32,000 nt of DNA from Candidatus Harpocratesius repetitus (GTDB taxonomy: Archaea > Asgardarchaeota > Lokiarchaeia > Sigyniarchaeales > Promethearchaeaceae). A program made the position numbers and the translations under genes. The notes under the pieces are model-generated. The model saw only the letters and a list, made by a program, of their open reading frames with translations. It did not search any database and was not told the DNA's origin. Each line of letters begins with the position of its first letter. Position 1 is the stretch's first letter. Below are positions 5,405 through 30,905 of this stretch, piece after piece. The stretch is taken from contig JAIZWK010000001.1 in the NCBI GenBank assembly GCA_021498095.1, positions 3,480,001-3,512,000 of the forward strand. Direction: 5' to 3'.

Positions 5405-5692
5405 ATCCAAACTTCAATTGAAGCGATGATTGATTTAGTTGCTATGGCAGCAAAAGAATTAGGTTTTCAAGTTCAAGATGACGAAACAAATATTCAAAAT
5501 TTAACAAAAACCATGGGAATTGATAAAGAATTAGGGAATAAATTAAAAAAAGCAAATGGAATGCGTAATCTTATTGTTCATCGTTATAATGGTATTGAAG
5601 ATAAACGCATTTTGCAATCAATTCCTGAAATAAAAGATTTATTAACAAAATGGATTGATATAATTGAAGAAATCATCGGAACAAATAGTTAA
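5405..5692 (+). pseudogene. HEPN/HepT (DUF86) ribonuclease toxin, 5'-truncated
   Basis: RNLIVHRY matches the RX4HXY motif. The reading IQTSIEAMIDL begins immediately after the upstream TGA in the same frame. The N-terminal helices of a full DUF86 protein appear to be missing; the first ATG (5426) gives only 88 aa. Confidence 0.75.
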
Positions 5693-6107
5693 TATTCCAT
5701 CAATTGATTATTTAAGAAAGAATCTTTATGAGATTAAAGATTGGTATGAGACTGTATGTTTTGGTTCTATAGTTGAAGGAACCTTTAGACCTGAATCAGA
5801 TATAGATATTGCAGTAATCACTCGAAATCATGATAAAGACAGTAATTTTAAAATATTACTTAATTTATACGAAAAATACGGCTCTAAATTTGATTTTAAG
5901 ATTTTCGAATTACTTCCAATTTATGTTCAAATTTCAATTATCCAAGATCATTGGATAATTTTTGGAGATCCTTTAGAAATTTCAGAATATTTCTACTTTT
6001 ATCGTAAAAAATGGGAAGATTGCAAACATCGAATTTTATCAAACCAATTCTCTAGCTATAGAGAGCGGTTAGCAATTATAAACTCAAGAAAAATTAAAAA
6101 TAAATAA
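5664..6107 (+). CDS. Minimal nucleotidyltransferase (MNT/MntA-type antitoxin)
   Basis: FGSIVEGTFRPESDID matches GSX10DXD. Overlaps the 3' end of the HEPN gene. Confidence 0.88.
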   Translation: MKKSSEQIVNIPSIDYLRKNLYEIKDWYETVCFGSIVEGTFRPESDIDIAVITRNHDKDSNFKILLNLYEKYGSKFDFKIFELLPIYVQISIIQDHWIIFGDPLEISEYFYFYRKKWEDCKHRILSNQFSSYRERLAIINSRKIKNK

Positions 6108-6194: not shown

Positions 6195-6437
6195 GTGAGC
6201 AAAATAATTACTGTTAATCGAAAAGGAATGATTACAATTCCAGTTAATATTCGAAAAAAATATAATATCAAAGAAAACTCTAAATTAGTTATTCTAGATA
6301 TTGATGGAAAACTTGAAATAATACCGATTTATGAAGATTTTTCTAAATTACAACAAAATTTATCTTCAAGAGAAAAAATTAAAGAAAGTATTAAGCAATC
6401 AATAGATATAGAATTAAAAATTGAGGGAGCAGATTGA
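6195..6437 (+). CDS. AbrB/MazE/SpoVT-family antitoxin (VapB-like)
   Basis: ITVNRKGMITIPVNIRKKYNIKENSKL is an AbrB swapped-hairpin signature. Overlaps the PIN gene by 4 bp. Confidence 0.88.
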   Translation: MSKIITVNRKGMITIPVNIRKKYNIKENSKLVILDIDGKLEIIPIYEDFSKLQQNLSSREKIKESIKQSIDIELKIEGAD

Positions 6438-6856
6438 AAGAAATTTGCATTGATACTGGAGTATTAAGCATTTTCTTTTCTAAAAATCCAACTACTCAAG
6501 TTAGAGCCCTAATGAAAGAAATCTTACAAAAAAAGATTAATGTTTACCTCCCCAAACCTGTATTGATTGAATCATTTTTTCATCTATGTAAAATAAATGG
6601 AAAAGAAATTGCTAAAATTACACTTCTCTCATTTTTGGAAAAATATCCATTAAATTTAGTTGAATTTGATAATAATTTAATTATCCAGGCAGGTCAAATA
6701 AAATGTCAACATCACAATACTCTGTCATATATAGATTGTATGGGAATTGCTATTGCATTAAATAAAAATATCCCGTTTCATACAACTGAATTAAATCTAA
6801 AAAAAATCCCACACAATCTCTTAAATAGATTGAAAATTGTTAAATATTCTTTTTAA
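6434..6856 (+). CDS. PIN-domain toxin (VapC-like)
   Basis: ICIDTG, VLIES and LSYIDC..IA.A supply the PIN acidic residues; 140 aa; coupled to the AbrB gene. Confidence 0.88.
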   Translation: MKEICIDTGVLSIFFSKNPTTQVRALMKEILQKKINVYLPKPVLIESFFHLCKINGKEIAKITLLSFLEKYPLNLVEFDNNLIIQAGQIKCQHHNTLSYIDCMGIAIALNKNIPFHTTELNLKKIPHNLLNRLKIVKYSF

Positions 6857-6971: not shown

Positions 6972-9917
6972 TTAAAAAAATATTTTCTTCTTTCTTGCAT
7001 AGACTCGAATCAATTCAAAAGCAATTGTGCTTGGTAAACAAAGTAAAATGCATATCACCCAATCAGAAAAACTTAACGCTGTGAAATAAAAAGTGATATT
7101 CAGCGTTTCACCCATAAACTGCTGAAGGGGTAAACTGTAGATACCAATCACGAAAATTATCAATGAAGGTAAGTAGAAGAGAAATTCCAACCATCCTAAA
7201 TCTTTTAAAGAATCTAACAGAGAATAATTAATACGACGAATTTGCAAAGGCATAATTACTGATTCTGTAATAAATAATACCAGAAATCCCATAGTTCGTG
7301 CTTTTATTATTTGAGGATTTACAAGCATTTCAACTTTTTCTGGGGGTAATTTCGGATATGGATTGTCAATTGAACCAGGATAACCGATATTCGCCAAATT
7401 TACATCATTGACATGAATTATATCAAACATACAGAAATAATAAGCAATCGCAATCGCTGCACCCATAAGAACGAGTTGAACGGCTAAAATTTTAAGAATA
7501 TTTGGAGTAATTATTTCAGCTGAATTGCGAGGCGGTTCTTCCATGACTGTTTTTGCATTTTTTCCAAAAGTAAAACCGAATGAGGGAAAGAAATGAGCAG
7601 TTAGATAAATCAGATTAAGTTGCCAATAATACCACATCTGAAAATCGGGATTTGCAGGATTTAAAGTGCTGGTAAATAATATAATGGCTTCCATAACTGA
7701 AACAAGCACAAAGAAATAAATTATGGAACGAATTTTCATAAATAATCCACGACCTTCCTTAATTCCTGTCACAATAGTACTAAATGAATCGTCTGTGATA
7801 ATCATATCAGCAGCTTCTTTTGCCACTTCTGTTCCTTGAATTCCCATCGCTAATCCACAATCAGCCATAGATAAAGCTAAAGCATCATTTACACCATCCC
7901 CACTCATAGATACGATTTTATCCATTGCTTGAAACCGTGAAACAATAATTTGTTTATGTTCTGGTGAAACACGCCCATAAACTTTAGTTCGTAGAAAATC
8001 TTCATCAGAAAGCGTTTCAATTTGATTTCCTTCTCTTGCTAAATCGTGTTCGGGATCAAAAAGTCCAATTTTTTCAGCAATAGCTTTTCCAGTAGAAATA
8101 CTATCTCCTGTAATCATTATCACATCAACATTAGCCTTTTTGCATTCATCTACGGCAGAATAAACATCTTCACGAGGTGGATCTAAAATAACAACAAAAC
8201 CTAAATAGGTTAAATCTCGTTCATAATGCTCACGTGCATTATCGGATTCAAAATCAACTGTCATTATAGATTTTGTTAATCGTCTATAAGTTAAAGAAAG
8301 AATACGATACCCTTCTGCGGCAAATTCTTTCATACGTTCAAGAATTATATTTCGCATCTCTTCATTCATATCATATTCTTCTTCTCCCAAACGATATTTT
8401 GAACATAAAGGCAGAATCCATTCAGTTGCACCTTTACAAAATAATAAATTGGTGTTTTCCGGAGTTCTAAATACTTTACTCATCCTTTTGATAGAAGAAT
8501 CAAAACTAAATTCCAATAAAAACTGGTAATTAGAATATAAAGCATCAATATCGGGATGGTACTTTTTTGCCAAAACTTTCAAAGCTGCTTCTGTGGGTAA
8601 GCCCATAATATCCCAAGTTAACTTTTCTTTCTGATCTTTTCGAAGAGTCTTTACTATTCTCTGTTGAATTTGACAATTATTATTTAAATGACCAGATTCA
8701 ATTAATAACGCTAAATGTGTATCATGAGAGTTTATGTTAATAGTCTTATTATCGTCTTGCTTGATTATATTTCCTTCATAAGAATAACCTTCACCATCTA
8801 CTTTATACTCTGCATCAGGAGTCCAAACGTGGACAACAGTCATCTCATTTTTGGTTAAAGTTCCTGTTTTATCAGTACAGACAACCGAAACACGCCCTAA
8901 ACTCTCAGTTCGTGAGATTTCTCGAACAATAACGCCTTTTTGCGCCATTGTTAACACACCTGTAAGCAGAACAATAGTGGTCAATAGTGGAAGGTTGATC
9001 GGCATTATTTTCATACCAAGATCAATAGAATCAATAATGCCTTCTCTAATGGTTGGTTCCCAAATAAATTCATCGTGAAGCCAGTAAATATAAAGTTTGT
9101 ATATAACTGATGAAATAAGTAAAAAGACAACACCAATTCCTAAATATATCGCAATATGATTCATTTTTTTACGTAAAGGAATATCACCTGTAGTTGATTC
9201 TTCTAATTTAGTACTGATTTTTCCAATTTCAGTTTCAGAACCTACTCTAACTACAATTGCAGTACATTCACCAGAAGCAACAAAAGTTCCCAGAAATAAC
9301 ATATTCTTTTGATCTTGCAAAGGAATATCAATCCCATCTATTCCATGAGCAATAATGGATTTTTTAACAGGTTCAGACTCACCGGTTAAACTTGCTTCAT
9401 CAATTGATAAATTTCGTGCTTCTATAATTCGACAATCAGCAGGAATCTTATCACCTGGATGCAGCTGAACAATATCACCAACAGTAATTTTACTTGTAGG
9501 TAATTCGATATATTCTCCATTACGAAGAACATAAGTAGTTGCTTCACTTAACTGTTTCAATGCTTGTAACTGCTTTTCTGCTCTTAACTGTTGAACAATT
9601 GCAACAATCGCATTTGCTCCAAGAATAATAAAAGTTGGAACAGTTCGTTGAATATCACCTAAAATCCACATCAAAAAAGCACTGACAAGATAAATAATAA
9701 TGAGTAAATTGATAATTGGGGCAATGACTACCTTATAAAAGGAGCGTTTAACTTTTTTTAATTCATTTAGCCCATATTTTGTGAGATTTTGCTCTACTTG
9801 GGATGGAGAAAGCCCGGTTTTAGGATCCGCATTATACAATTTAATAATTTCAGATAATTCCATTGAATAAAATGGAGTAATGGGTCGTGCCAAAGTTTCT
9901 TCTTCTATAGTAGCCAT
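6972..9917 (-). CDS. P-type ATPase, P2A/SERCA-like scaffold with a non-canonical ion-binding site
   Basis: DEASLTGES, DKTGTLT, KGATE, DPPR, MITGD and GDGVNDA are all intact. M4 reads PINLP rather than PEGLP. Confidence 0.95.
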   Translation of the reverse strand: MATIEEETLARPITPFYSMELSEIIKLYNADPKTGLSPSQVEQNLTKYGLNELKKVKRSFYKVVIAPIINLLIIIYLVSAFLMWILGDIQRTVPTFIILGANAIVAIVQQLRAEKQLQALKQLSEATTYVLRNGEYIELPTSKITVGDIVQLHPGDKIPADCRIIEARNLSIDEASLTGESEPVKKSIIAHGIDGIDIPLQDQKNMLFLGTFVASGECTAIVVRVGSETEIGKISTKLEESTTGDIPLRKKMNHIAIYLGIGVVFLLISSVIYKLYIYWLHDEFIWEPTIREGIIDSIDLGMKIMPINLPLLTTIVLLTGVLTMAQKGVIVREISRTESLGRVSVVCTDKTGTLTKNEMTVVHVWTPDAEYKVDGEGYSYEGNIIKQDDNKTININSHDTHLALLIESGHLNNNCQIQQRIVKTLRKDQKEKLTWDIMGLPTEAALKVLAKKYHPDIDALYSNYQFLLEFSFDSSIKRMSKVFRTPENTNLLFCKGATEWILPLCSKYRLGEEEYDMNEEMRNIILERMKEFAAEGYRILSLTYRRLTKSIMTVDFESDNAREHYERDLTYLGFVVILDPPREDVYSAVDECKKANVDVIMITGDSISTGKAIAEKIGLFDPEHDLAREGNQIETLSDEDFLRTKVYGRVSPEHKQIIVSRFQAMDKIVSMSGDGVNDALALSMADCGLAMGIQGTEVAKEAADMIITDDSFSTIVTGIKEGRGLFMKIRSIIYFFVLVSVMEAIILFTSTLNPANPDFQMWYYWQLNLIYLTAHFFPSFGFTFGKNAKTVMEEPPRNSAEIITPNILKILAVQLVLMGAAIAIAYYFCMFDIIHVNDVNLANIGYPGSIDNPYPKLPPEKVEMLVNPQIIKARTMGFLVLFITESVIMPLQIRRINYSLLDSLKDLGWLEFLFYLPSLIIFVIGIYSLPLQQFMGETLNITFYFTALSFSDWVICILLCLPSTIAFELIRVYARKKKIFF

Positions 9918-10357
9918 ATACTTCAACCGTAAAAAATTTCAGTTTTGATCTGAAATTAAATATATAATTAGTTGTTTAGAGATTCGTAAAAAGACTTACA
10001 TTTCTTAAAAAGCAATTAATTTATGAGGATCTAGCAATTTTTATAATTTTAAAGATTTTTGATTTTTTAGCTCAAGATTACTCTGATTTTATATTTTTAT
10101 CCCTTTTTTATTTTAGTCGGGTGTTTTGGATTATTATTTGTTGTAATATTGAAGAAAATGAAGGACAACTTGGACTGCATTTGCATATTAATTGTTTATA
10201 ATGAATTGATAAAAAAGCAATCTATTTTAATGACGAACAAATTGTATTCAAACGATTATTTTTTCCTGATCAAATATGATCAACCAAAATCGCTATTGGT
10301 TAAATCATAAAAATAATTCCATCTATTTAAATCTTTGGAAAGAAAATTCAGAGAAAA

Positions 10358-10618
10358 ATGCCTAAAGTCCACTGAAATGCCCAGAATTTATATGAGCATA
10401 AAGGAAATAGAAAAAATGTAATTGATAGTATTACTGCTTTAATCAGACAACTAAGAAATATCAAAGAAGTTCCACCAAATGGTTTGATTATGTATTCAGG
10501 TCAAATTCCCAAAGATAATAAACTAAGAAGTGAAAAAACCGAACTTTACATAATCGAACCGCCCGAACCAGTAACTACTTTTAAATATTATTGCGCTTCT
10601 GAATTTCTCTGTAATTGA
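10358..10618 (+). pseudogene. aRF1/eRF1 N-domain fragment
   Basis: Manual translation: MPKVH*NAQNLYEHKGNRKNVIDSITALIRQLRNIKEVPPNGLIMYSGQIPKDNKLRSEKTELYIIEPPEPVTTFKYYCASEFLCN*. PPNGL, IEPPEP and YxCxxxF are eRF1 domain-1 hallmarks. In-frame TGA at 10373. Confidence 0.85.
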
Positions 10619-10652
10619 ATCTGTTTTTTTAATGGGAGTTCTTTACGAAATA

Positions 10653-10707
10653 TTCGAATTCTTTGATATTATATTTTTTCCGAAAAATTTTTATATGAAA
10701 TATTAAC
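10653..10707 (+). repeat. Conserved ~55-bp upstream segment, copy 1 (copy 2 at 12589-12642); possible promoter of the array units
   Basis: ttcga.ttctt.gatatta.attttttccgaaaaatttttat.tgaa..attaac occurs at both places, each time ahead of a protease-gene unit. Confidence 0.75.
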
Positions 10708-10768
10708 AACCATTAAGAAATGACAGTATAAAACCAAATAAGAATTCAGTTTTTTTATGAATGTCCAC

Positions 10769-10817
10769 AATTGTCGTATTGAATTTTGCATCAGCTATAA
10801 AAATAAGCGAAAAAATC
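10769..10817 (+). pseudogene. Deletion remnant of protease gene copy A1
   Basis: 10769-10809 matches 14246-14286 (A2 signal-peptide region) with 2 mismatches in 41 bp. From 10818 the sequence matches 15584 onward (A2 stop and spacer). Confidence 0.85.
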
Positions 10818-10859
10818 ATTATAAATGAATAAAGGAAAATTATAGGAGTGAAAATTATC

Positions 10860-11762
10860 ATGAAAAAATCAAAAAGTAAAAAAAAAAAAAGAAACGTCTT
10901 GTTTAAAAATAAATTAGCTGTTTTTCTGATTGCAGTTTTTATTTCCACTGCATTTTTCGAATTCCAAGCCGTTCCATATGCAACGGCACTTTCCACTGGA
11001 TTAAAACCCGGAGATGTTATTGTATACGACTATACGGATACTGGTTCCTATTTTGACACTAATATGTCTTTAGTTGATTTTTATGAATATAATTCGGATC
11101 AAATCGTGGAAAACATATTGGCGGTTAAAAATTCCGGAGATAAAATTGAAGTAAATTTTTTAGTGCAAGATGAGATTGGAGAAGAAAATCATACATTGGT
11201 TCTTAATTCGACATCTCCCATGGGTAGATTAATTATTCCCCAAGAAAATATAGGGTTTAATTTTTCTAATTCAGAATTTTTCAATTATCTTAATAGATGT
11301 TTGAACACAAATGAACTAGTTCTGGCTGGCATTTCTCCTGAAGGAAACATAACTTGGGACTATGAAGTATTAACAAATGGTCATGGTTTTCAGATTAACG
11401 CAAATTATACGAATTATAAATATAATTGCACAGAGTATTATAATTTTTCCGTAAGCTTGTTCTATTCCAGTTCTGGGGTATTACTACGGAGAATTCAAGA
11501 ATATAGTGTTAAAGTACCTCCAGATTATTACCGAAACGGCGCAATTCTTTGGGTTTGGATTAAAAAAACATCTATCAATGAAACTTTATCAACTTTTGAA
11601 GGAAAAGATGAACGTCCATGGGATCCGAACTATATTTATCCGGATAATACTTTAGATGATGGCCAACAAAAACTGATTTCTCTTGGGAGATTTGGATTCA
11701 TTGGAATTTTTGGAGTATCTGTTCTCTTTTTGATCAGAAAAAATAAATTAACAAAAAAATGA
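10860..11762 (+). CDS. Secreted/surface protein B1 with an alternative C-terminal membrane anchor
   Basis: Basic + hydrophobic signal peptide, many N-x-S/T sequons, near-identical to B2 up to DERPWDPNY, then a different TM + basic tail. An AGGAG motif precedes ATG 10860. Confidence 0.85.
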   Translation: MKKSKSKKKKRNVLFKNKLAVFLIAVFISTAFFEFQAVPYATALSTGLKPGDVIVYDYTDTGSYFDTNMSLVDFYEYNSDQIVENILAVKNSGDKIEVNFLVQDEIGEENHTLVLNSTSPMGRLIIPQENIGFNFSNSEFFNYLNRCLNTNELVLAGISPEGNITWDYEVLTNGHGFQINANYTNYKYNCTEYYNFSVSLFYSSSGVLLRRIQEYSVKVPPDYYRNGAILWVWIKKTSINETLSTFEGKDERPWDPNYIYPDNTLDDGQQKLISLGRFGFIGIFGVSVLFLIRKNKLTKK

Positions 11763-11940
11763 AGATGAATTTTACAATTTGAATACTCCTTTTTTTTATT
11801 CCATCTTCTTAATTTTCATTTAATTTATGTATTTGAAGAATTATATCTGTTAAAGCGAATACAAAGTTTTCTTTTTAGATAAGCATCTTCTTTTGGATAT
11901 TTTCCATAAAGTTTTTATCACATTATAAATTCGAATTTAT

Positions 11941-12333
11941 ATGGTAGGTCGCCCTTTAAAGCCCCAAACCAAGATCTTTCGAGATTTTGAGATAGAAACA
12001 CCTTCTGGTGATATAAAAACGCTTAAAGAAATACTAATCTGCTGTCCAATTTGCCATTCTTCTCACGTTGGAAATCATGGAACACGAAAGCGAGGAAATA
12101 CCCGAGTTCAAATTTATCAATGTAAAAATCCGAATTGTGCTTTTCTGAAACACGCAAACCAAGGGAAGCAGTTTACGATTTATAGCAGTCTGATGGTAAA
12201 TTCGATCGTAAATCATTATCTCCATGAAATTTTAGCGAAATTATTTAAATCTGAAGGAAAACTGATTAATATTAGGAAAAACTACTCTCTTTCACCCAGT
12301 TTAATGTCTTATTTGAATAAAAAGACATTGTGA
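11941..12333 (+). mobile_element. Truncated IS1-like (InsA-type zinc ribbon) transposase
   Basis: CPICHSSHVGNHG...VQIYQCKNPNC...KQF. No DDE domain follows. 11764-12085 is repeated at 25844-26177. Confidence 0.7.
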
Positions 12334-12444
12334 TTGAAAGATTTAACTATGAACAAAACAATCGAATCACTACAACAATCGGAGTGAAATCAGATTTTGC
12401 TAAAAAAAGAGCGAAAAGGGAATATTTTTACGCAGAAGTGAAAT

Positions 12445-12546
12445 TCAACTATTTTTCCGTTTTTGAAATAAAAGGTCGGCTTCTTGTAATTGCCTGCGCA
12501 TAACTTTACCTACTGCATTTTTTGGCATTTCATCGATAATTTCGAA
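12445..12546 (-). pseudogene. C-terminal remnant of an acyl-CoA synthetase (AMP-binding enzyme)
   Basis: Manual translation FEIIDEMPKNAVGKVMRRQLQEADLLFQKRKNS* contains the A10-type LPKxxxGK..RR motif. Confidence 0.8.
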
Positions 12547-12643
12547 AGCGCTGGAATGATCAAAGAAAATTATCAAATATATAATTAGTTCGATTTCTTG
12601 GATATTACATTTTTTCCGAAAAATTTTTATCTGAACATTAACG

Positions 12644-14182
12644 ATGTAATTGGTTTTTTATAGTTTTTCTTGTCTTGAAATTTTTATAAAATCTTAATTT
12701 TGATTCAATTTCGGTAGAATTGTTCATATTTTATTTCTTTGCAGGGATGCATTGCAATTTTGAGAGATAAAGGGAATAATTTAAAAGCTAAGCTTTCTTA
12801 CCCTTGGATATGTCTACAAATCTTAGGGGAAATCCATCGGCTGCCACCGATATTGGAAAAATTACTCCCGATCTAATTAATCCGCAGTTACTTTTAGATA
12901 TTGTGAAAATGATAGATCCTGTGATTTCCCAAAAATTGCCTCAGAAGCGAAGTGGATTTTCCTACACCATCTTCGTTTTATTTGCATGTTGTATGCAAAT
13001 TTTAAGACTTTCGCCCCGACACACTTCAGAAATTTTCCAAGAAAAGTGTTCTCGCGCTCAAATTTCATTTCAATCCTACTCAGTTACCAAATTTTCAAAT
13101 GGCAAACAACGGAGATTCTTCCCTGATCAACCTGCTCTTTCTCGATGTCTTCAAACCTTGTCTAAGTTAGATTTAGTTGAAGAATTTTGGAATTCTGTAC
13201 TTTTAGCACATTTATTAATTCTCAAATCTTTGAAAATTATAGGTTCGGATCTAAAGTTAATAGCAGATTATACTGATACGCCGTGCAAGAAAAATAAAGA
13301 CGATCCTTATTGTTTCGGGAAAAAAGAAGGCAAAACAGTTCATCGTACGCTTAGTTTTTCCGTTATTTCAGGTGATATTCATCAAATGATTGCCAATTTC
13401 AAAATTAAAAAGCGTCAAGATAAACTTCCTTTATTTCACAATGTCCATGAGATGCTAATTTCTAACTGCTTTTCCATAAAATATGCTATGCTTGACCGAG
13501 GCTTTTATCGTAAAAGAATACTAAAGTTCTTTCAGCAGAAGCACATAACCGTGATTATGCCAGGAAGAAAATGTGCGCAGACAAAACAAAAAATTATGAA
13601 CTACTTGAATGGAATTGGCAAAAGATACTGCAAAGGTGTAATTAAGGGTAAATACGTAAAAAAAAAGGGGTTTTTACCCATTAAATTCGATCTTCTGCTT
13701 GTTGCTAAACGCAGATTTAATTTAAAAGAAATCATTCAAGATTTTAATCAAAAAAAGATCAGTGAACAAGTCGCCAGCAGCCGTATTTTTCCCCTAATTG
13801 TTATGTTCTGCTCAAAATCAGGCATAAAAACCCTACACGGCAACGAGAATTATATTCGAGATCTTTATCGCCAAAGATGGTTAATAGAAATTGCATTTCG
13901 TGAAATGAATCGGTTTGGCATTGCACAAAAGGTGCAAGATCGCAATAGCCGGCTGAATACTATGGGAGTACGATGCTTTTTGTACAATATATGGCAGACA
14001 CAACGATTTCTAATAAAGAAAAGCGATCCTTCTGCAGCAAATTTGGAATTGAATGAATTTCTTGGAATGTGCTCAAATCATCGGTATCCATTATATTTAT
14101 CATCCATGAATTGAAAGAAGTAATATTATCATGGAGAAATGAATAAATTAATCTTAAATAGAAGAAAAAGGATCAATTACAT
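12644..14182 (+). mobile_element. IS4-superfamily (ISH3-like) insertion sequence, about 1.54 kb
   Basis: Imperfect terminal inverted repeats: atgtaattg at 12644-12652 and caattacat at 14174-14182, each flanked internally by T/A tracts. No clear target-site duplication. Confidence 0.65.
12804..14114 (+). CDS. DDE transposase (IS4/ISH3-like)
   Basis: IADYT, MLDRGFY and LYRQRWLIEIAFRE (YxxRxxxE signature). Confidence 0.9.
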   Translation: MDMSTNLRGNPSAATDIGKITPDLINPQLLLDIVKMIDPVISQKLPQKRSGFSYTIFVLFACCMQILRLSPRHTSEIFQEKCSRAQISFQSYSVTKFSNGKQRRFFPDQPALSRCLQTLSKLDLVEEFWNSVLLAHLLILKSLKIIGSDLKLIADYTDTPCKKNKDDPYCFGKKEGKTVHRTLSFSVISGDIHQMIANFKIKKRQDKLPLFHNVHEMLISNCFSIKYAMLDRGFYRKRILKFFQQKHITVIMPGRKCAQTKQKIMNYLNGIGKRYCKGVIKGKYVKKKGFLPIKFDLLLVAKRRFNLKEIIQDFNQKKISEQVASSRIFPLIVMFCSKSGIKTLHGNENYIRDLYRQRWLIEIAFREMNRFGIAQKVQDRNSRLNTMGVRCFLYNIWQTQRFLIKKSDPSAANLELNEFLGMCSNHRYPLYLSSMN

Positions 14183-14213
14183 AGTGAATGATCTGAAAAA
14201 AAAAAAAAAAAGC

Positions 14214-15590
14214 ATGGCAAAAAAAATATGTTATTTTATAATCATAATTGTCGTATTGAATTCTGCATCAGCTATAAAAACAAGCGGAACAAGCTTAGAA
14301 AATACCAATTTATTGAATGGAAATTTGATTGGTTTAAGGTTAAATTTCAACAATGAAGAGCCCATTAAAATCGATAATTCAGCATCTTTCAAAATCGTTT
14401 CAGATAATTTTTTAGATAAAGGAGTAGATATCTTTATTTATTCGAAATTGGGGAATTTTCTTTTTGATAACTTTGAAGTATCGGTAAAGAACTATTTCTA
14501 TCAAGATAAAATTCAGAAATTAGATTTATATATTGAAAATTCGACTATTGGCTTCTTTGCCGAAATTCACCATCAAGCGAACTATGTAAGAATTGATTTT
14601 GCCTTTGAGTATAATTCCTCCCAACTTTCTTTCATGGGGTTATTTCAATCATCAAATTTAGAGAGGATTTACTCTGAATTTAATCGAGTAACAGAAAAAC
14701 AGAAGAATTTTATTTGCGATTCAAAAAACACTATCTTGGATATTAATCAGATTAATATGATATCAAAAAAAGAGTCGGAGAAATTTCTAAACAGCATTCA
14801 TTTCCAATATCTAAATCCTAGTGGTTTTGGAGAATCATTAAAAAGTGATGGAAGCTCGTTGCTATGTTGACGACCGCCTCAAGCATCAGGTTTAGTCATT
14901 AGAGATTATATGATTATTCATCAAAGTGGGGGAACTTACAAAATTGGAAATGATGATTTTCCTATAGACATTGTAAATTATATGGAATCGAATCCCAATG
15001 TTGATATAGATGTCGGAATTGCTCGAATCGGGCCTTCAGAAAGCCAAATAAAAAGTGATCTTCAATATTATAACAAGGATACTGAATATTTTGGATCTTT
15101 GCGAACAATTAGGAATATTGTTGCTTATGAATGGTTTGGCCATGGAGGCTCAAATCGTGAATGGATAATTCAGCAAGAAGTATATGACTATAAATTTCAA
15201 TTGTATATATGGCAAGAAGTAGGTAGGATTTATCCTGATGAAATTTCATCCCTCTGGGGTGATTCATCTTCAGGAAATTATGTTTACCATGTTTTTATGG
15301 ATAATGCAATAATTCTAGCATTTGCCTGTCAAAATTGGGGAACAACATTATCTTCCACACCAAACATGGGATCAGCATTTGTATATGATGGATATGCATC
15401 CAGTTGGGTTGGTTTTACAATAGATTTGCCCCAAACCAGCACTGATGATTGTTCAGAAACATTTTGGTATGCTTTTTGCAACAATGGAGCGGATGTCGAG
15501 GATGCAACAATTGCGATGTGTGATCTTTATCTTGATTTTGAATATGGAGATAATTGTGGTATTTATGGTTCTATTTCACAAAAATTATAA
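14214..15590 (+). pseudogene. Secreted clan-CD-like cysteine protease A2, split by one in-frame TGA (14868-14870)
   Basis: ORFs 14139..14870 and 14910..15590 are in the same frame with 13 sense codons between them, collinear with intact A3. The start at ATG 14214 is chosen by comparison with A3. FGHGG and FACQNWG are retained. Confidence 0.85.
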
Positions 15591-15625
15591 ATGAATAAAG
15601 GAAAATTATAGGAGTGAAAATTATC

Positions 15626-16534
15626 ATGAAAAAATCAAAAAGTAAAAAAAAAGAAAGAAACGTCTTGTTTAAAAATAAATTAGCTGTTTTTCTAATTGCA
15701 GTTTTTATTTCCAATGCATTTTTTGAATTCCAAGCCGTTCCATATGCAACGGCACTTTCCACTGGATTAAAACCCGGAGATGTTATTGTATACGATTATA
15801 CGGATACTAGTTCCTATTTTGACACTAATATGTCTTTAGTTGATTTTTATGAACATATTTCGACCCAAATCGTGGAAAACATATTGGCGGTTAAAAATTT
15901 CGAAGATAAAATTGAAATAGATTTTAAATTGCAATTACCATATGAGAATAAGGAAGAAAATCATACATGGGTTCTTAATTCGACTCTTTACTTAGGTAGC
16001 TCTCCTATTCCCCAAGAAAATATAGGGTTTAATTTTTCTGATTCAGAATTTTTCAATTATCTTAATAGATGTTTGAACATAAATGAACTAGTTCTGGCTG
16101 GCATTTCTCCTGAAGGAAACATAACTTGGGATTATGAAGTATTAACAAATGGTCTTGGATTTCAGATTAACGCAAATTATACGAATTATAAATATAATTA
16201 CACAAAGTATTACAATTTTTCCGTGAGCTTGTTCTATTCCAGTTCTGGGGTATTACTGCGGAGAATTCAAGAATTTAGTGTTAAAGTACCTCCAGATTAT
16301 TATCAAGACGGCGCAATTCTTTGGGTTTGGAGTAAAAAAACATCTATCAATGTAACTTTATCTAATTTTGACGGTAAAGATGAACGTCCTTGGGATCCGA
16401 ATTATACTTATCCTAGTGATATTTCAGAAAACGGAAACATTCCCGGTTATAATTTAGGCATTTTTATAGGAATTATGTTTACCGCTTCACTCTTCATTAT
16501 AAGAAAGCGAAAACACAAGTATTACAACGATTGA
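15626..16534 (+). CDS. Surface protein B2 with a Loki-CTERM-type sorting signal
   Basis: Signal peptide; C-terminus NIPGYNLGIFIGIMFTASLFIIRKRKHK (IPGY + TM + basic cluster). Confidence 0.85.
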   Translation: MKKSKSKKKERNVLFKNKLAVFLIAVFISNAFFEFQAVPYATALSTGLKPGDVIVYDYTDTSSYFDTNMSLVDFYEHISTQIVENILAVKNFEDKIEIDFKLQLPYENKEENHTWVLNSTLYLGSSPIPQENIGFNFSDSEFFNYLNRCLNINELVLAGISPEGNITWDYEVLTNGLGFQINANYTNYKYNYTKYYNFSVSLFYSSSGVLLRRIQEFSVKVPPDYYQDGAILWVWSKKTSINVTLSNFDGKDERPWDPNYTYPSDISENGNIPGYNLGIFIGIMFTASLFIIRKRKHKYYND

Positions 16535-16709
16535 TTATTCATTTTCTTTCTTTTTTCAATATTGCCTATATTAATAAATTTCTAAGTCAGTTTGGTAAAA
16601 TTTTTATTTTTTATAGAAATCAGTTAAAAAATATCGGTTATATCAATAACATAAATCTGGATTAACAAGATTTTATGATTTTCCGGTAAAAGAACGACGA
16701 AATTCTAAA

Positions 16710-16943
16710 ATGGAGCAAAAATTTGGTCAAGAGAAATCAAATTTCATCCAACGCAGTGGGAAGGCAAATATAAGCAGTCAAATTCGTGTTAGAAGGATAT
16801 TTAAATTAAAAATTCAAAATACATCGCTTTCTGAAATAGAATCATACATAGATTCTCCTGAACGTTCATATTCTCGAGACAAGATACATCAAAGATTAAC
16901 AATGCTAAAAGAAAGGCAAGAATTTGAAAAAAAATCTTACTAA
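16710..16943 (+). CDS. Small basic hypothetical protein
   Basis: 77-aa ORF between units 2 and 3; no motif recognised. Confidence 0.4.
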   Translation: MEQKFGQEKSNFIQRSGKANISSQIRVRRIFKLKIQNTSLSEIESYIDSPERSYSRDKIHQRLTMLKERQEFEKKSY

Positions 16944-17087
16944 TTTCCCAATTGATTTTTCACTTTTCACAAGTTCAATCATAAAGATATCATAAAAAAA
17001 TCAACCAACTTTGCGAGAACAATTATCTGTTTTAACTATAGGAGAAAGCAAAAACTTTATAAATATAAGAAAATAAAAAAAAAAAAC

Positions 17088-18461
17088 ATGACAAAAAGAG
17101 AAATATGTTATTTAATAATCTTATTTGTCGTTTTTATTTCCGCTTCAACTTTAAAAACCAATGGAATAAACGTAGAAAATTCCACTTTACTAAATGGGAA
17201 CCTTATCGGTTATAGATTAAATTTAAATGATGAACAACCTATGAAAATAGATAGTGAAGCATCATTTAATATTATCTTGGATAATTTTCAAGAAAAAAAA
17301 GTATGGATATTTTTTTATTCTCGATTCGGTGATTTTATATTTGATAATTTTGAATTATCTATCAAGAATTATTTATATCAAGGAAAAATCCAAAAATTCG
17401 ATTTATATATTGAAAACTCAAGTATGGGTTTTTTTGCAGAAATTCATCATCAGGCAAATTATTTAAGAATTGATTTTGCATTTGAAAAAAATGAATCTCA
17501 ATTTTCATTCATGGGTTTATCTCAGTCAAATAATTTAGAAGGATTTTGTTCAATTTTTAATCAATTATCGCCGAATAAGGAACAAGTGTTATGTAAAAAA
17601 AAAAGTATTAATCTAGATCTTAATCAGATTAAACTGTTATCAAAAAAAGAGTCTGAAAATTTTATAAATAGTATTAATTTTCATAGATTCAATGACCTTA
17701 ACCATGATTTATCCAAAGGTGGCAATACTCAACTAATTAAACAAAAACCTCGGGTTTCGGGTTACACAATTACAAAAGATATGATTATTCATCAAAGTGG
17801 GGGAACTGCAGAAATTGTAAATGATGATTTTCCAATAAACATTGTAAATTATATGGAATCTAATCCCAATGTTGATATAGAGGTCGGAATTGCTCGAATC
17901 GGGCCGTCAGAAAGCCAAATAAAAAGTGATCTCCAGTATTATAATAAAGATACAGAATATTGCTATTCAATTAGATCTATACGCGATATTGTTGCTTATG
18001 AGTGGTTCGGTCATGGTGGTTCAAACCGTGAATGGATAATTCAACAAGAGACATATGACTATAATATTGGATGGTATGAATGGCAAGAAGTTGGTAGAAT
18101 TTATCCATCTGAAATTACTTCTCTTTGGGGTGATTCATCCTCAGGAAATTATAATTATCATGTTTTTATGGATAATGCAATAATTTTGACATTCGCATGT
18201 CAGAATTGGGGAACAACATTATCTACAAACCCGATTATGGGGTCCGCATTTGTAGATGATGGTTATGCATCCAGTTGGGTTGGTTTTACTATAGATCTAC
18301 CGCAAGATATCACCGATGATTGTTCGGAAGCGTTTTGGTATGAATTTTGTTCGATCGGAAAAAATGTAGAGGACGCAACAATCGCTTTATGCGATATTTC
18401 AACAATTTTTAGTTATGGAGTCAATTGTGGAATTTATGGTTCTATTTCACAAACATTATAA
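17088..18461 (+). CDS. Secreted clan-CD-like (caspase/gingipain-fold) cysteine protease A3, intact
   Basis: Signal peptide, ~200-aa N-domain, then EWFGHGG (His codon at 18012), ILTFACQNWG (Cys codon at 18198), SWVGFT and FWYEFC..GKNVEDA. An A-tract and TTTATAAATA lie upstream. Confidence 0.72.
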   Translation: MTKREICYLIILFVVFISASTLKTNGINVENSTLLNGNLIGYRLNLNDEQPMKIDSEASFNIILDNFQEKKVWIFFYSRFGDFIFDNFELSIKNYLYQGKIQKFDLYIENSSMGFFAEIHHQANYLRIDFAFEKNESQFSFMGLSQSNNLEGFCSIFNQLSPNKEQVLCKKKSINLDLNQIKLLSKKESENFINSINFHRFNDLNHDLSKGGNTQLIKQKPRVSGYTITKDMIIHQSGGTAEIVNDDFPINIVNYMESNPNVDIEVGIARIGPSESQIKSDLQYYNKDTEYCYSIRSIRDIVAYEWFGHGGSNREWIIQQETYDYNIGWYEWQEVGRIYPSEITSLWGDSSSGNYNYHVFMDNAIILTFACQNWGTTLSTNPIMGSAFVDDGYASSWVGFTIDLPQDITDDCSEAFWYEFCSIGKNVEDATIALCDISTIFSYGVNCGIYGSISQTL

Positions 18462-18491
18462 AAAAATTTTTTCAAAGGAGGAAATTTAAAA

Positions 18492-19394
18492 GTGAAAAGT
18501 CAAAAAATAAAAAAAAAAAGATTTCAACTCTCGAAATATTCGATCATATTTTTAATAAGTGCATTTATTTTTTTTCCTATATTTTACGAATTACATGCCA
18601 TTCCATACGCATCGGCATTTTCTACAGGATTGAAGCCGGGAGATGTTATCGTGGATGAATTTATAGATATGAATTCTTATTACGATTCAAATATGACATT
18701 ACTTGATTTTTACATAGATCAGAAGAAGATGACAACAAATATTACAGATATTAGATATTTGAACGAAAACATTGAAATTCACCTTGTATACCGAGATCTT
18801 ATTATGGAAAAAGACGAAATCGGCGTTGTTATCATTAATTCGTCCCTACCTCTGGGAACTGCTTATATCCCCCAAGAATATATCGGGTTCAATTTTTCCG
18901 ATTCAGCATTTCTTGACTATATTAATTTTTATTTCGAGCATAGAATTATGGAAGATGATCGCCCTGAAGGAAATTTTACTTGGAATCATGAAATATTGGC
19001 AAAAGGTCTCGGTTTTCGGATTAATGCGAATTATACGAATTATAAATTTAATTGCACAAAAGAATACAATTTAACTGTAAGTTTGTATTATTCCCGTTCT
19101 GGAGTTTTACTGCGGAGAATTGAAGAATTGCGGATTAAATTACCGCCTAATTATAATTATAGTATTGACAATACAGTACTTATTGTTTCGAATAAAAACA
19201 CATTTATCAATTCCACTTTATCTAATTTTGACGGTAAAGATGAACGTCCTTGGGATCCAAATTATACTTATCCAAGTGTTATTTCAGAAAACGAAAACAT
19301 TCCCGGTTATAATATAGGCATTTTTATAGGATTTGTGTGTACCGCTTCACTCTTCATTATAAGAAAGCGAAAACACAAATATTACAACGATTGA
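18492..19394 (+). CDS. Surface protein B3 with a Loki-CTERM-type sorting signal
   Basis: Divergent paralogue of B1/B2; ends NIPGYNIGIFIGFVCTASLFIIRKRKHK. AAGGAGG precedes GTG 18492. Confidence 0.85.
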   Translation: MKSQKIKKKRFQLSKYSIIFLISAFIFFPIFYELHAIPYASAFSTGLKPGDVIVDEFIDMNSYYDSNMTLLDFYIDQKKMTTNITDIRYLNENIEIHLVYRDLIMEKDEIGVVIINSSLPLGTAYIPQEYIGFNFSDSAFLDYINFYFEHRIMEDDRPEGNFTWNHEILAKGLGFRINANYTNYKFNCTKEYNLTVSLYYSRSGVLLRRIEELRIKLPPNYNYSIDNTVLIVSNKNTFINSTLSNFDGKDERPWDPNYTYPSVISENENIPGYNIGIFIGFVCTASLFIIRKRKHKYYND

Positions 19395-19423
19395 TTATTC
19401 ATTTTCCTTCTTTTTTCAATATT

Positions 19424-19489
19424 GCCTATATTAATAAATTTCAAAGCCGATATTAACAAATTTTTAAGCCTATATTAATAAATTTTAAA
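19424..19489. repeat. 22-bp direct repeat x3 (gcctatattaataaattt(c/t)aaa-like)
   Basis: Units at 19424, 19446 and 19468. One copy is present at 16564 after B2. Confidence 0.85.
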
Positions 19490-19505
19490 TAATGGAAGCG
19501 TCCGC

Positions 19506-19778
19506 TTGATAAATGAAAGTGATTTGAACCAAATGGTCAAAATCTGGAATGATTTTCCAGAATTTTTTACATCTCCAGGCAGAACTCATACTTTAGAAAC
19601 ATTAAAAACTTGGTTTCAAAACCTACATCAAGATTATCATGATTATTATGGATATTTTTCAACAAATAATACTGTAGATGATGGCCAGCAAAAACTGATT
19701 TCTCTCGGGAGATTTAAATTCATTGGAATTTCAAGAATAATTGTTCTCTTATTGATCAGAAAGAAAAATTCGCTTTAA
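19506..19778 (+). CDS. Small chimeric ORF ending in the same anchor tail as B1
   Basis: C-terminus DDGQQKLISLGRFKFIGISRIIVLLLIRKK is homologous to the B1 C-terminus. Confidence 0.5.
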   Translation: MINESDLNQMVKIWNDFPEFFTSPGRTHTLETLKTWFQNLHQDYHDYYGYFSTNNTVDDGQQKLISLGRFKFIGISRIIVLLLIRKKNSL

Positions 19779-19875
19779 GTGCTTTTTTCTCTTTTCAGAA
19801 CTAATATCTTGCAGAAAAAACCAAAAAGTCTTAATAATGAAATTTGCCTAAATCCTCTCTTATAAAAATGTAAAA

Positions 19876-20343
19876 TTACAAATCTTCATTATTAATTGGA
19901 GAATCAGAAACAGACTGCAAATATAAATCTATTATACGGTTTTTTATCGCACTTGAACTATGAAGGGTGTATTTTGTATAAAGCTTTTCTAACCGACGAA
20001 CTTCTATGTTTCCGGCATTATTTTTAGATAAAAGTTCCTTTAATTTAGAAACACTTATTTTTTGGTTGGGACCTAAAAGGATAATATCTGGTTTTAAACT
20101 TAGGGCTTTGGCAAGATAATTGTTATTTTCATTACCTAACGTTGCATAAGTCACATATTTTATAGATTGGATAATTTCTAAGCGTTGCTGCTCACAAATA
20201 ATTGGAGGTTGCTTCTTCCACTTCTTAATTGTAGAATCACGTGCAAGAATTACATATACATCTCCTAATTTTGCAGCTTCTTGAAAGAGAAACAAATGAC
20301 CAGGATGTAAAATGTCAAAACATCCAGTTACTAATACCCGCAT
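19876..20343 (-). CDS. ribL: Archaeal FAD synthase (cytidylyltransferase-like)
   Basis: TGCFDILHPGH (HxGH), ARD, and SSSAIK..I at the C-terminus. Confidence 0.85.
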   Translation of the reverse strand: MRVLVTGCFDILHPGHLFLFQEAAKLGDVYVILARDSTIKKWKKQPPIICEQQRLEIIQSIKYVTYATLGNENNNYLAKALSLKPDIILLGPNQKISVSKLKELLSKNNAGNIEVRRLEKLYTKYTLHSSSAIKNRIIDLYLQSVSDSPINNEDL

Positions 20344-22425: not shown

Positions 22426-23490
22426 CTAAATTAAAGAAAGCAGATCGGATATTGCATCCTTCATAGGCTTATCTTCATGCAGTATTTTATATATTTGAGT
22501 GGTCAAGGGTAAATTAATTCCATTTTGAATAGCAAATTGATGAACAGATTTCGCTGCCCAAACCCCTTCTGCAACCATTCCGTGCATTTCTTCCTTAATT
22601 TGAGCAAATGTCTTACCTTCCGCTAATTTTTGCCCATAAGAACGATTACGAGATAATTTTGAAGAACAGGTTGCTATCAAATCACCCACACCTGCAATTC
22701 CAAAAAAGGTTTTTCTCGCACATCCAAAATGCTTGCCAATTCGGTTCATTTCTGTGAGCCCTAAAGTAATAATACTTCCCTTAGAATTATCGCCAAGATT
22801 TAGACCATCACAAATTCCAACCGCAATTGCAGTAATATTCTTAACGGCTCCACAAATTTCTATACCTCGTTCATCTGTTAGAGCATAGGGTTTAAATGTT
22901 TTTGTATGAAATAATGAAACAAGACCAGGAAGAATTTCTTCATGGATTGAAGCAATAACAGTAGCTGTAGGTTGACCCATTGCTACTTCTTTGGATAAAT
23001 TAGGGCCAGAAAGAGCAGCAACCTTTACATTTTCTGGAAGAACCTCCCGTAAAACCTCTGACATAAGCTTAAATGTATCATATTCTAAACCTTTAGAAAC
23101 CGAAACTAATTTATATTCCTTATCAGGAAGGAATAATGGAGCAATTTTTTGAGCCATACTTCTCACAAATGCTGAAGGAACTGCAAAAACAATTACATCA
23201 GAGTTTGGAACTACAGATTCTAATTTTGAATAAGCTTTTAAATTAGGAGAAAGCGCAATATTTGGCAAATACTGAGGATTTTTATGCAAATTATTAATGT
23301 GATCAACAGTTTCTTGCTCATAACTCCATATTTTGACAGATATTCCCTTTGTGGCTAAAAGGTTGCCTAAAGTAGTCCCCCACCCACCTGCTCCAATTAC
23401 TGAGACATTTAGATCACTTAAGTCATTTAAACCATTTGGGTTATTTGGATCATTTGAGACACTTGGAATTTCATGGATTTTTGTTTTCAT
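22426..23490 (-). CDS. gpsA: NAD(P)H-dependent glycerol-3-phosphate dehydrogenase
   Basis: IGAGGWGT, VSKGLE, LSGPNLS.EV, GAVKNI.AIA.G, GDLIATC.S..SRN and EGV. Confidence 0.95.
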   Translation of the reverse strand: MKTKIHEIPSVSNDPNNPNGLNDLSDLNVSVIGAGGWGTTLGNLLATKGISVKIWSYEQETVDHINNLHKNPQYLPNIALSPNLKAYSKLESVVPNSDVIVFAVPSAFVRSMAQKIAPLFLPDKEYKLVSVSKGLEYDTFKLMSEVLREVLPENVKVAALSGPNLSKEVAMGQPTATVIASIHEEILPGLVSLFHTKTFKPYALTDERGIEICGAVKNITAIAVGICDGLNLGDNSKGSIITLGLTEMNRIGKHFGCARKTFFGIAGVGDLIATCSSKLSRNRSYGQKLAEGKTFAQIKEEMHGMVAEGVWAAKSVHQFAIQNGINLPLTTQIYKILHEDKPMKDAISDLLSLI

Positions 23491-30347: not shown

Positions 30348-30905
30348 TTATTTCATATTTTCTAATTCACGCTCAATGGCTAACGCTTGTTCATAACATT
30401 TTCGCGCTACTTGCATGAACATTTCCTCAACATTCGTCCCATCCTTTGCAGAAGTCTCCAAATGAACTGCATTCAACCGATCCGCCAAATCTAATGCATC
30501 ATCCCGTGATACACGCCGTTGCTCATCAGCTAAATCTACTTTGTTTCCTATCAGCACTAATGGTATATCTCCTGCAGCTTTTTTGAGGGTACTTATCCAC
30601 CCTGGAAGTCGCAATAAAGACTCGGGTGTTGTGATATCATATACGCCGATAGCTGCTTGTGAACCCTTAAAATATATATTTCGCATACTTGAGAATTGAG
30701 CTTGTCCTCCTATATCCCAAAGCATGAGCCGTATATCATTTCCATCAATTTCTACGTCTTTGATAAGAAAATTGGTTCCGATAGTTTGTTTAAGGTCACT
30801 TGAAAATGTTTGTTTAATGAATCTAAAGATTAAGCTGGTTTTTCCAACATTCTGGCTACCAAATAGTGGTACTTTAAATTTATACTGTTTTCGTGGAGTC
30901 GACAT
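30348..30905 (-). CDS. Rab-like small GTPase (Ras superfamily)
   Basis: GSQNVGKTS, TIGTNF, WDIGGQ, GNKVD and ETSAK. No C-terminal cysteine. Confidence 0.95.
   Translation of the reverse strand: MSTPRKQYKFKVPLFGSQNVGKTSLIFRFIKQTFSSDLKQTIGTNFLIKDVEIDGNDIRLMLWDIGGQAQFSSMRNIYFKGSQAAIGVYDITTPESLLRLPGWISTLKKAAGDIPLVLIGNKVDLADEQRRVSRDDALDLADRLNAVHLETSAKDGTNVEEMFMQVARKCYEQALAIERELENMK

Follow-up and report, generated by a model that had tools for sequence, protein, structure and literature searches.

What does a calcium-pump scaffold carry once residues that bind calcium have been replaced? The question is raised by a P-type ATPase gene of the Asgard archaeon Candidatus Harpocratesius repetitus, whose genome is a single contig of 4,361,485 bp (G+C 31%). 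The gene lies in a stretch of 32,000 nucleotides of this genome, hereafter the window (contig JAIZWK010000001.1, positions 3,480,001–3,512,000), which provides the numbering used below. The initial annotation of the window described a SERCA-like pump whose catalytic motifs are intact but whose transport site is rewritten; motifs and alignments agree with this description and place the pump on the P2 scaffold. The pump belongs to a family that is found in most Asgard genomes, and what the members have in common is very probably a functioning pump whose conserved site is new and not of the SERCA type. What is new here, as far as sequence comparison can tell, is an Asgard-wide P2-like subfamily with a His-centred site; the P2 scaffold itself is known.

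A SERCA-like pump with an altered transport site

The gene is on the minus strand, as are all the motifs given below. Its open reading frame spans 6972–9926 (984 open codons) and contains an in-frame TTG at 9926, but translation probably begins with the ATG at 9917. This gives a coding sequence at 6972–9917 (stop codon 6972–6974) and a protein of 981 residues, and a database record of 981 residues is 100% identical to the translation. The Pfam domains are Cation_ATPase_N, E1-E2_ATPase, Cation_ATPase, Hydrolase, and Cation_ATPase_C. The catalytic motifs required for the Post-Albers cycle, DKTGT, TGES, TGD, GDGVND, KGA, and DPPR, are all intact. The A-domain dephosphorylation motif TGES is encoded at 9375–9386, the phosphorylation motif DKTGT (with D349) at 8859–8873, and the P-domain motif TGD (T603–D605) at 8103–8111. 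The hinge, GDGVNDALAL (7872–7901), has Leu680 at the end of the family sequence GDGVNDAL, where canonical pumps have proline (GDGVNDAP).

In SERCA, Ca2+ site II consists of E309, carbonyls of M4, N796, and D800, and site I of N768, E771, T799, D800, and E908, with D800 bridging both sites. In the window protein, M4 reads PINLP (P306–P310; 8988–9002), which puts Ile307 at the position of E309 and Asn308 at that of G310. M5 reads VSVMEA (7686–7703), where Ser740 corresponds to N768 and Glu743 to E771. M6 reads QLNLIYLTAHFFP (7584–7622), where Tyr771 takes the place of N796, Ala774 that of T799, and His775 (codon 7593–7595) that of D800. M8 reads FITESV (7257–7274) and keeps E908 as Glu885 (codon 7263–7265). 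At the entrance to the site, M1 has APIIN (9708–9722), in which Pro67 replaces the Gln, and Asn70 the frequent Asp, of canonical P2A pumps, and the cytoplasmic end of M2 is QQ (Q109–Q110; 9588–9593), the P2A, P3A, and P3B references having QE. The reading frame and the M4, M5, and M6 motifs had been quoted in the initial annotation and are all present as given there.

Three alignments bear on these equivalences. In a phmmer search against the PDB, the Listeria LMCA1, SPCA1, and SERCA come on top (2e-113 to 1e-101), with PINLP opposite PEAL/PEGL and the M6 His opposite the Asp of NLVND/NLVTD. In a MAFFT alignment of 244 full-length relatives, with 84 canonical PEGLP pumps as the comparison set, I307, N308, S740, E743, Y771, A774, and H775 line up with E, G, N, E, N, T, and D of the canonical proteins. 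The C-terminal half taken as a single sequence finds only SPCA (E ~1e-3, over M5–M7 only), and because it is too diverged a profile of M5–M10 was built from 43 family members. This profile matches SERCA2 over the entire length (E = 7.5e-29), putting N..E on N768..E771, the His on D800, and the M8 Glu on E908; in M10 the family DW...E..K aligns with the QW...DE..K of SERCA. The substitutions initially read by eye (E309>I, N768>S, N796>Y, T799>A, and D800>H, with E771 and E908 kept) are the ones recovered by phmmer, MAFFT, and the profile, which also agree on G310>N.

An AlphaFold2 model made from a 52-sequence alignment (mean pLDDT 82.9) has ten membrane helices, with M4 unwound at 305–308 and M6 at 773–776. 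P-type pumps break the M4 and M6 helices at these points to form the transport site. The initial annotation had suggested modelling M4–M6 as a check, and the model unwinds precisely at PIN and around His775. Among known structures, the model is closest to the E1.Mg2+ form of SERCA1a (TM 0.78), and the ESM Atlas gave, besides the cluster to which the protein itself belongs, only generic clusters of bacterial P-type proteins. Because the site II ligands E309, N796, and D800 are gone, SERCA-type Ca2+ transport is very unlikely, a conclusion that rests on site chemistry and sides with the earlier view that this is probably not a Ca2+ pump.

Conservation of the altered site

More than 7,700 P-type relatives came up in a homology search. 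The 120 that rank highest all carry the altered site and, where named, belong to Promethearchaeota, Loki-, Thor-, Heimdall-, Odin-, Hod-, or Hermodarchaeota. An exhaustive search of representatives gives ~45 clusters (50% identity) with the altered site; below ~460 bits there is an abrupt change to canonical PEGLP / N..E / N..TD pumps.

Residues were counted column by column in 147 family members (down to ~35% identity) and 84 canonical pumps. The D800 column is His in all 147 members and Asp in all 84 canonical pumps, and the E771 column is Glu in all 147 (80 among the canonical). At E309, which is Glu in the 84 canonical pumps, the family has I (131), L (9), F (3), V (2), or W (2), and at G310 it has Asn in 145 members, to be compared with Gly in 78 canonical pumps. 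The E908 column is Glu in 144 members, and Gln (50) or Glu (33) in canonical pumps. Other positions are looser: N768 is N (112) or S (33) in the family and N in 80 canonical pumps; N796 is S (62), Y (45), or others, opposite an invariant N (84); and T799 is L (62), A (35), or V (28), opposite T (76). Outside the site proper, the M2 QE has become QQ in 143 of the 147 members (Q at the equivalent of SERCA E109), and in M1 the family has Pro and Asn replacing canonical Gln and often Asp. When Asgard P3A and P3B pumps are added to the alignment, P2A, P3A, and P3B all keep the M2 QE and the M6 Asp, both of which are changed only in the family. Among the P2 and P3 pumps compared, no residue of the transport site is as conserved as this Asp (SERCA D800, AHA2 D684).

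Within the subclade of the window protein (33 sequences, 51–100% identical), the residues I, N, L, P, S, E, Y, H, and E are fixed and the Ala is found in 30 of 33. This subclade includes the orthologue from strain MK-D1 (QEE15990.1), which is 61% identical to the window protein. One concern raised at the outset was that the substitutions might be drift or error in a single allele. They are family-wide, and as judged from these columns the altered site is a family trait, not chance or sequencing error, and is under strong purifying selection.

The counts also bear on whether these pumps are degenerating or non-transporting paralogues under relaxed constraint. The presence of several copies per genome would allow it. 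The frame is open, however, no catalytic motif is damaged, the gene keeps its place on the chromosome (see below), and the altered residues are invariant among sequences that are only ~35% identical overall. We regard this explanation as having next to no chance of being right.

Phylogeny and distribution

We define the clade by the M4 motif P-(I/L/V)-N-(I/L/F)-P, a His at the D800 position of M6, QQ in M2, the Glu of M5 and of M8, and a place within the clan recovered by phylogeny. The window protein shows all of these features. In a FastTree phylogeny of 130 sequences, rooted on the P1B pump of the genome, a branch with support 94 sets all family members apart, and one member on their side of it has lost the His. 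A second tree was built with IQ-TREE (LG+C20+F+G4) from 63 sequences, including six P3A and four P3B Asgard references chosen because they exceed the curated TIGR01647 and TIGR01524 cut-offs. There the family is a single clan (SH-aLRT 100) whose stem measures 0.5 substitutions per site, and P3A joins P3B (100) away from the family. The family adjoins the canonical PEGLP set, a placement that is weakly supported (83). The initial annotation had envisaged a phylogeny with P2A, P2C, P3A, P4, and P5 references. The part with P2A and P3A, extended to P3B, was carried out, and among these references the family sits beside P2A.

A search for homologues with PI[NS]L and an M6 His in other Asgard genomes, also suggested initially, gave a clear outcome. 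With a family profile (E ≤ 1e-150, up to four copies scored per genome), matches are found in 187 of 201 sampled Asgard genomes, in 84 of the 86 that are of high quality, and in 57 of 59 genera. Genomes often have 2–4 copies, and tandem pairs are frequent in the order to which the window belongs. Beyond this sample, we scanned GTDB, with one genome for each species, for a degenerate DNA pattern that encodes the M4 motif. Among the 87 matches listed, 83 sit 40 codons upstream of DKTG and are thus real ATPases. The labels of the matches listed are Asgard or "uncultured archaeon", bar two exceptions. These are contigs with MPINIPLL members labelled as an "Aerophobetes" bin (NJBP01000013.1) and as Methanomethylicus. 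In addition, one cluster from Korarchaeota is nested within the family. The three cases may be transfers or binning errors. No eukaryote-labelled member was seen in the library, which does hold eukaryotic P2 pumps (e.g., from Balamuthia). The family is thus probably a monophyletic subfamily, close to universal among Asgard archaea and seldom or never present outside them.

The pumps of one genome

By tblastn, the genome of Ca. H. repetitus has six P-type pumps: four family copies, one canonical P2A, and one P1B. The window copy (PINLP in M4, S..E in M5, Y..AH in M6) is of the Lokiarchaeial paralogue type. Paralogue 1 has PVNIP, N..E, and S..LH, and paralogue 2 has PINIP, N..E, and S..VH. Paralogue 3 (G000:C1:243936-246929) has PLNFP, D..E, and Y..IH, with TGEI and not TGES in the A domain; with an Asp at the N768 position (IDLMEL), its site is the most divergent of the four. 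In both FastTree and IQ-TREE the four paralogues occupy three deep subclades of the family, which indicates that the duplications are old. The canonical P2A pump has PEGLP in M4, SSNIMEV in M5, and NLVTDG in M6, and the P1B pump has CPC in M4 and is of the copper type. With a canonical Ca-ATPase and a CPC copper pump present, the Ca2+ and copper jobs are already covered. Profile searches with curated cut-offs found no P3A or P3B pump in this genome.

Among other Asgards, MgtA-type P3B pumps are found in 17 of 121 genomes. The P2C model TIGR01106 has no match in the 121 Asgard genomes, and none in the control genomes either. Some unusual architectures came up as well. Three proteins of 1682–1706 residues (P0156, P0162, and P0207) have two DKTG motifs per polypeptide and are fused double P-type ATPases, in which the N-terminal pump, whose M4 is of CP(A/S) type or related to it, precedes a C-terminal pump of PEGL type. 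The protein P0178 (1204 residues) is P2-like with an Ala at D800, and its JGI name denotes a fusion with a formate/nitrite transporter (FNT) domain.

What the remodelled site may carry

The account that we consider probable is a functional P2-scaffold ATPase in which site I has been rebuilt around Glu/Glu/His, with H+ or a monovalent cation as cargo. Taken on its own, the nature of the cargo is a more tentative matter, and we would give H+ or a monovalent cation somewhat less than an even chance. In the proposed mechanism Ca2+ site II would be abolished by E309>Ile, N796>Tyr, and D800>His. Site I would survive as Glu743, Glu885, and Ser/Asn740, re-centred on His775 and on the new Asn308 of M4. 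The acidic cation funnel of M1/M2 would be neutralised (QE>QQ, D>N), lowering the net negative charge of site and funnel. The loss of site II and the neutralised funnel would together suit a single small low-charge species rather than two Ca2+ ions. The pump would then drive ATP-dependent export, most likely of H+, with the proton carried by a Glu/His relay (His775, Glu743, and Glu885) and His775 doubling as a built-in counter-charge. Built-in charges are known in other pumps, as an Arg in P3A and as a Lys in ZntA and KdpB. In P1B-4 pumps a His has been given this role (PMC10654040).

Three observations point toward a low-charge cargo rather than a metal. The M1/M2 acidic residues kept by P2A, P3A, and P3B are lost in the family. 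The residue at E309 is aliphatic, as in Asgard P3A pumps (PVALP). Finally, no His- or Cys-rich metal-binding stretch is found in the 147 members (His-rich stretches, 0/147; Cys-rich and chaperone-type domains were screened only by the Pfam scan of the query). The first and the last of these also weigh against the pump being a transition-metal exporter, in which Glu743, Glu885, and His775, with Asn308 and Ser740 or Tyr771, would bind one Mn2+, Fe2+, Co2+, Ni2+, or Zn2+ ion and the 2–4 paralogues per genome would serve different metals. At the entrance, acidic residues have been lost, not gained; no metal-responsive regulator or chaperone gene is close by at the loci examined, and the known transition-metal P-type pumps are P1B, not P2. 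Yet this idea has its merits. In general coordination chemistry His is a classic ligand of transition metals and a poor one for Ca2+, Na+, and K+. Two carboxylates are retained, the paralogues vary at the N768, N796, and T799 positions, and the only P1B pump of the genome is of the CPC copper type. Overall we find a transition metal unlikely, but regard it as the main rival to H+ or a monovalent cation.

The conserved half of the site allows another reading, in which the family pumps Ca2+ (or Mg2+/Mn2+) through a single remodelled site I at 1:1 stoichiometry and the annotation in the databases is essentially correct. E771 and E908 persist, as does N768 in most members, the nearest solved relatives are all Ca2+ pumps, and JGI, NCBI, and the Saier-lab survey (PMC7997004) all class Asgard P2-like pumps as putative Ca2+-ATPases. 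Against it, the Asp at D800 is invariant in the 84 canonical pumps and in all P3A/P3B references and is replaced by His in 147 of 147 members here, and a hydrophobic residue replaces T799. Every Ca-ATPase equivalog cut-off is missed widely, and the genome has a separate canonical Ca-ATPase. Moreover, the single-site pumps already established, SPCA, PMCA, and LMCA1, retain site II and not site I. A single-site Ca2+ pump thus seems to us decidedly unlikely.

Several points weigh against the rebuilt, low-charge site that we favour. A Glu/Glu/His/Asn centre would be equally good chemistry for Mn2+, Fe2+, Co2+, Ni2+, and Zn2+. Bona fide P3A H+-ATPases (~1000 bits, cut-off 615) coexist with the family in 31 of 201 Asgard genomes (15%), so that an H+ role of the family would be partly redundant there. 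No transport partner or regulator was found near the window gene, its three paralogues, or the three orthologue contigs, where the neighbours are toxin–antitoxin and housekeeping genes. The alignment of M8–M10 to solved pumps requires the profile, the single sequence reaching only E ~1e-3, and we infer the clustering of N308, E743, H775, and E885 from the SERCA alignment.

A new specificity is plausible for this pump. For the family as a whole, it is quite conceivable, if a shade short of probable, that the PxNxP / M6-His pumps are a new, Asgard-specific functional subfamily standing beside P2A–D, with a substrate or mechanism new to the P2 scaffold. If this is true, the family could be, for example, a His-centred proton pump energising the membranes of fermentative syntrophs, or a P2-type transition-metal pump. 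Its ancient paralogues would have diverged in specificity, and it would serve housekeeping in the archaeal lineage nearest to eukaryotes without having been passed on to them.

Gene neighborhood

On one flank of the ATPase there are two toxin–antitoxin-like pairs, a HepT-like RNase with a nucleotidyltransferase (MNT) at 5426–6107 and a MazE/AbrB-like protein with a PIN protein at 6195–6856, followed by a cyclophilin-like gene and the gene for phosphoribosyl pyrophosphate (PRPP) synthase. On the other flank, ~10 kb of unknown open reading frames and a DDE transposase (12804–14114) precede genes for a CTP-transferase-like protein (19876–20343), an epimerase, and translin. This ~10 kb also includes an Ogr/Delta-like zinc-finger open reading frame (11941–12333) and frames without a Pfam match (10848–11762 and 14139–19394), and the region 10000–19800 resembles a mobile element or island that has been inserted.

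In orthologue contigs the ATPase lies directly between the CTP-transferase-like gene and the cyclophilin-like and PRPP synthase genes. In contig L015 the CTP-transferase-like gene is only 190 bp upstream of the ATPase, whereas the two are ~10 kb apart in the window. Both toxin–antitoxin-like pairs are absent from the equivalent position in contigs L016 and L017. The locus in the window has thus taken insertions on both flanks, and the synteny kept in the orthologue contigs indicates that the ATPase is a vertically inherited core gene.

Other genes deserve mention in their own right. Glycerol-3-phosphate dehydrogenase (GpsA) is the enzyme for the lipid backbone of bacteria and eukaryotes, and a bacterial-type, NAD-dependent, GpsA-like enzyme with three Pfam domains is encoded in this archaeal genome, at 22426–23490 of the window. 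Two eukaryote-like signature proteins follow, a protein of 530 residues with several C2H2 zinc fingers (27835–29427) and a Ras-family small GTPase (30348–30905; 1e-46). Elsewhere in the genome, a presenilin-like protein (Pfam Presenilin, 1e-19; G000:C1:1390832-1392205) is encoded just downstream of paralogue 1.

Annotation and literature

Proteins of the family are annotated in databases as "cation/Ca2+ ATPase". We found no description of the family in literature searches on P-type ATPases in Asgards and archaea, eukaryogenesis, P4 and P5 pumps, or the motif strings. The Palmgren 2023 review of P-type ATPases does not cover it, and the 2014 classification of P-type pumps is older than the Asgard genomes. 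The Saier-lab survey (PMC7997004) assigned the P2-like pumps of five Asgard proteomes to TCDB 3.A.3.2.21, "putative Ca2+ ATPase". The assignment was made by similarity only, transport-site residues being unexamined, and was read as support for Ca2+ signalling. The assigned pumps are probably the same genes as those of the family or sister genes, although the assignment could refer instead to the canonical paralogue. A work on the Ca2+ system of the endoplasmic reticulum (PMC7016017) derives SERCA from bacteria and leaves the Asgard family proteins unmentioned.

Ca2+ signalling in Asgards should not be argued from these proteins. A large family with the M6 Asp turned into His, the M4 Glu deleted, and the funnel neutralised is also a natural experiment in the change of cargo of a P-type pump. 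The cargo question is directly testable, since the cultured strains MK-D1 and Lokiarchaeum ossiferum both have orthologues, and expression and reconstitution are routine for P-type pumps made of a single subunit.

Comparison with known P-type subfamilies

Membership in the P-type superfamily is clear, with 274 bits for TIGR01494 (cut-off 62), the phosphorylated Asp in its motif, TGES, TGD, and GDGVND, and the A, P, and N domains. The architecture is that of P2, with ten transmembrane helices, Cation_ATPase_N and Cation_ATPase_C, and an N-terminus without heavy-metal-binding domains. The cut-off of every subfamily model is missed. The best score, 434 bits, is with the PMR1-type P2A model TIGR01522 (cut-off 798), followed by 415 with the P2A model TIGR01116 (703). 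For the other P2 groups, P2B gives 367 (TIGR01517; 507), P2C 322 (TIGR01106; 946), and P2D 372 (TIGR01523; 645). P3A gives 319 (TIGR01647; 615) and P3B 283 (TIGR01524; 611). P5 gives ~273–274 (TIGR01657; 618) and P4 112 (TIGR01652; 431). The initial annotation had allowed that the protein might fall inside a characterised subfamily with its motif; neither the NCBIfam cut-offs nor the literature yielded one.

The closest likeness is with P2A pumps (SERCA1a/2, SPCA1/PMR1, LMCA1, and YloB-like proteins). The domain set, the ten-helix fold, and the catalytic motifs are shared; the M5 N..E, the M8 Glu, and the M10 W...E..K align to SERCA; and P2A is the nearest clade in the tree. For site I, E771 and E908 are kept, and at N768 the query has Ser, most members Asn. 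The family differs from P2A in E309>I/L/V, G310>N, N796>S/Y, T799>L/A/V, and D800>H, so that neither PEGLP with its Glu309 nor N796..T799-D800 is present (PINLP and Y..A-H in the window protein), as well as in M2 QE>QQ, in the loss of M1 acidic residues, and in being a separate clan on a long stem.

The hydrophobic residue at E309 led the initial annotation to a possible link with P4 flippases, which have PISL, and together with the loss of the acidic entry funnel it might suggest a large or non-ionic substrate, such as a lipid, polyamine, or peptide, handled in the manner of P4 or P5. This link finds no support on closer comparison. The P4 and P5 scores are far below that of P2A, the A domain has TGES and not DGET, and M4 has MPINLP, with no PPxLP motif or the PP(E/A)LP of P5. 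The family branches with P2A, its hosts are prokaryotic, and no beta-subunit is known. An invariant, polar and charged core of E, E, H, and N is typical of ion sites. The aliphatic residue is also present in Asgard P3A proton pumps (PVALP), and is therefore not diagnostic of flippases. A substrate of this kind is in our view very improbable.

With P3A the family shares this aliphatic residue after the M4 Pro (PVALP in Asgard P3A, PINLP here), a low-charge transport centre and, in the proposed mechanism, a built-in positive residue, which would be His in the family and is Arg in P3A. However, P3A pumps have the M6 Asp (LND), the M5 Arg, and the M2 QE, and lack the M8 Glu; the family has His for the M6 Asp and Glu in the column of the M5 Arg. 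A likeness of M1 to P3 pumps (NPxxW / NPFNILL) was considered and dropped, as the alignment with Asgard P3A and P3B gave it no support. P3B (MgtA) pumps have PE(L/M)LP in M4 and the M6 Asp, both absent here.

The loss of D800 alone is, among the sequences compared, not a unique feature. In the canonical clade, 11 of ~97 cluster representatives have A, N, S, G, T, E, or H at this position, and one of them, the Chloroflexota pump P0263 (MBI2953185.1), has His as in the family. But P0263 and the other pumps without this Asp keep PEGLP, and thus E309, as well as N796. They lie inside the canonical clade, and their changes are therefore independent of those of the Asgard family, and partial.

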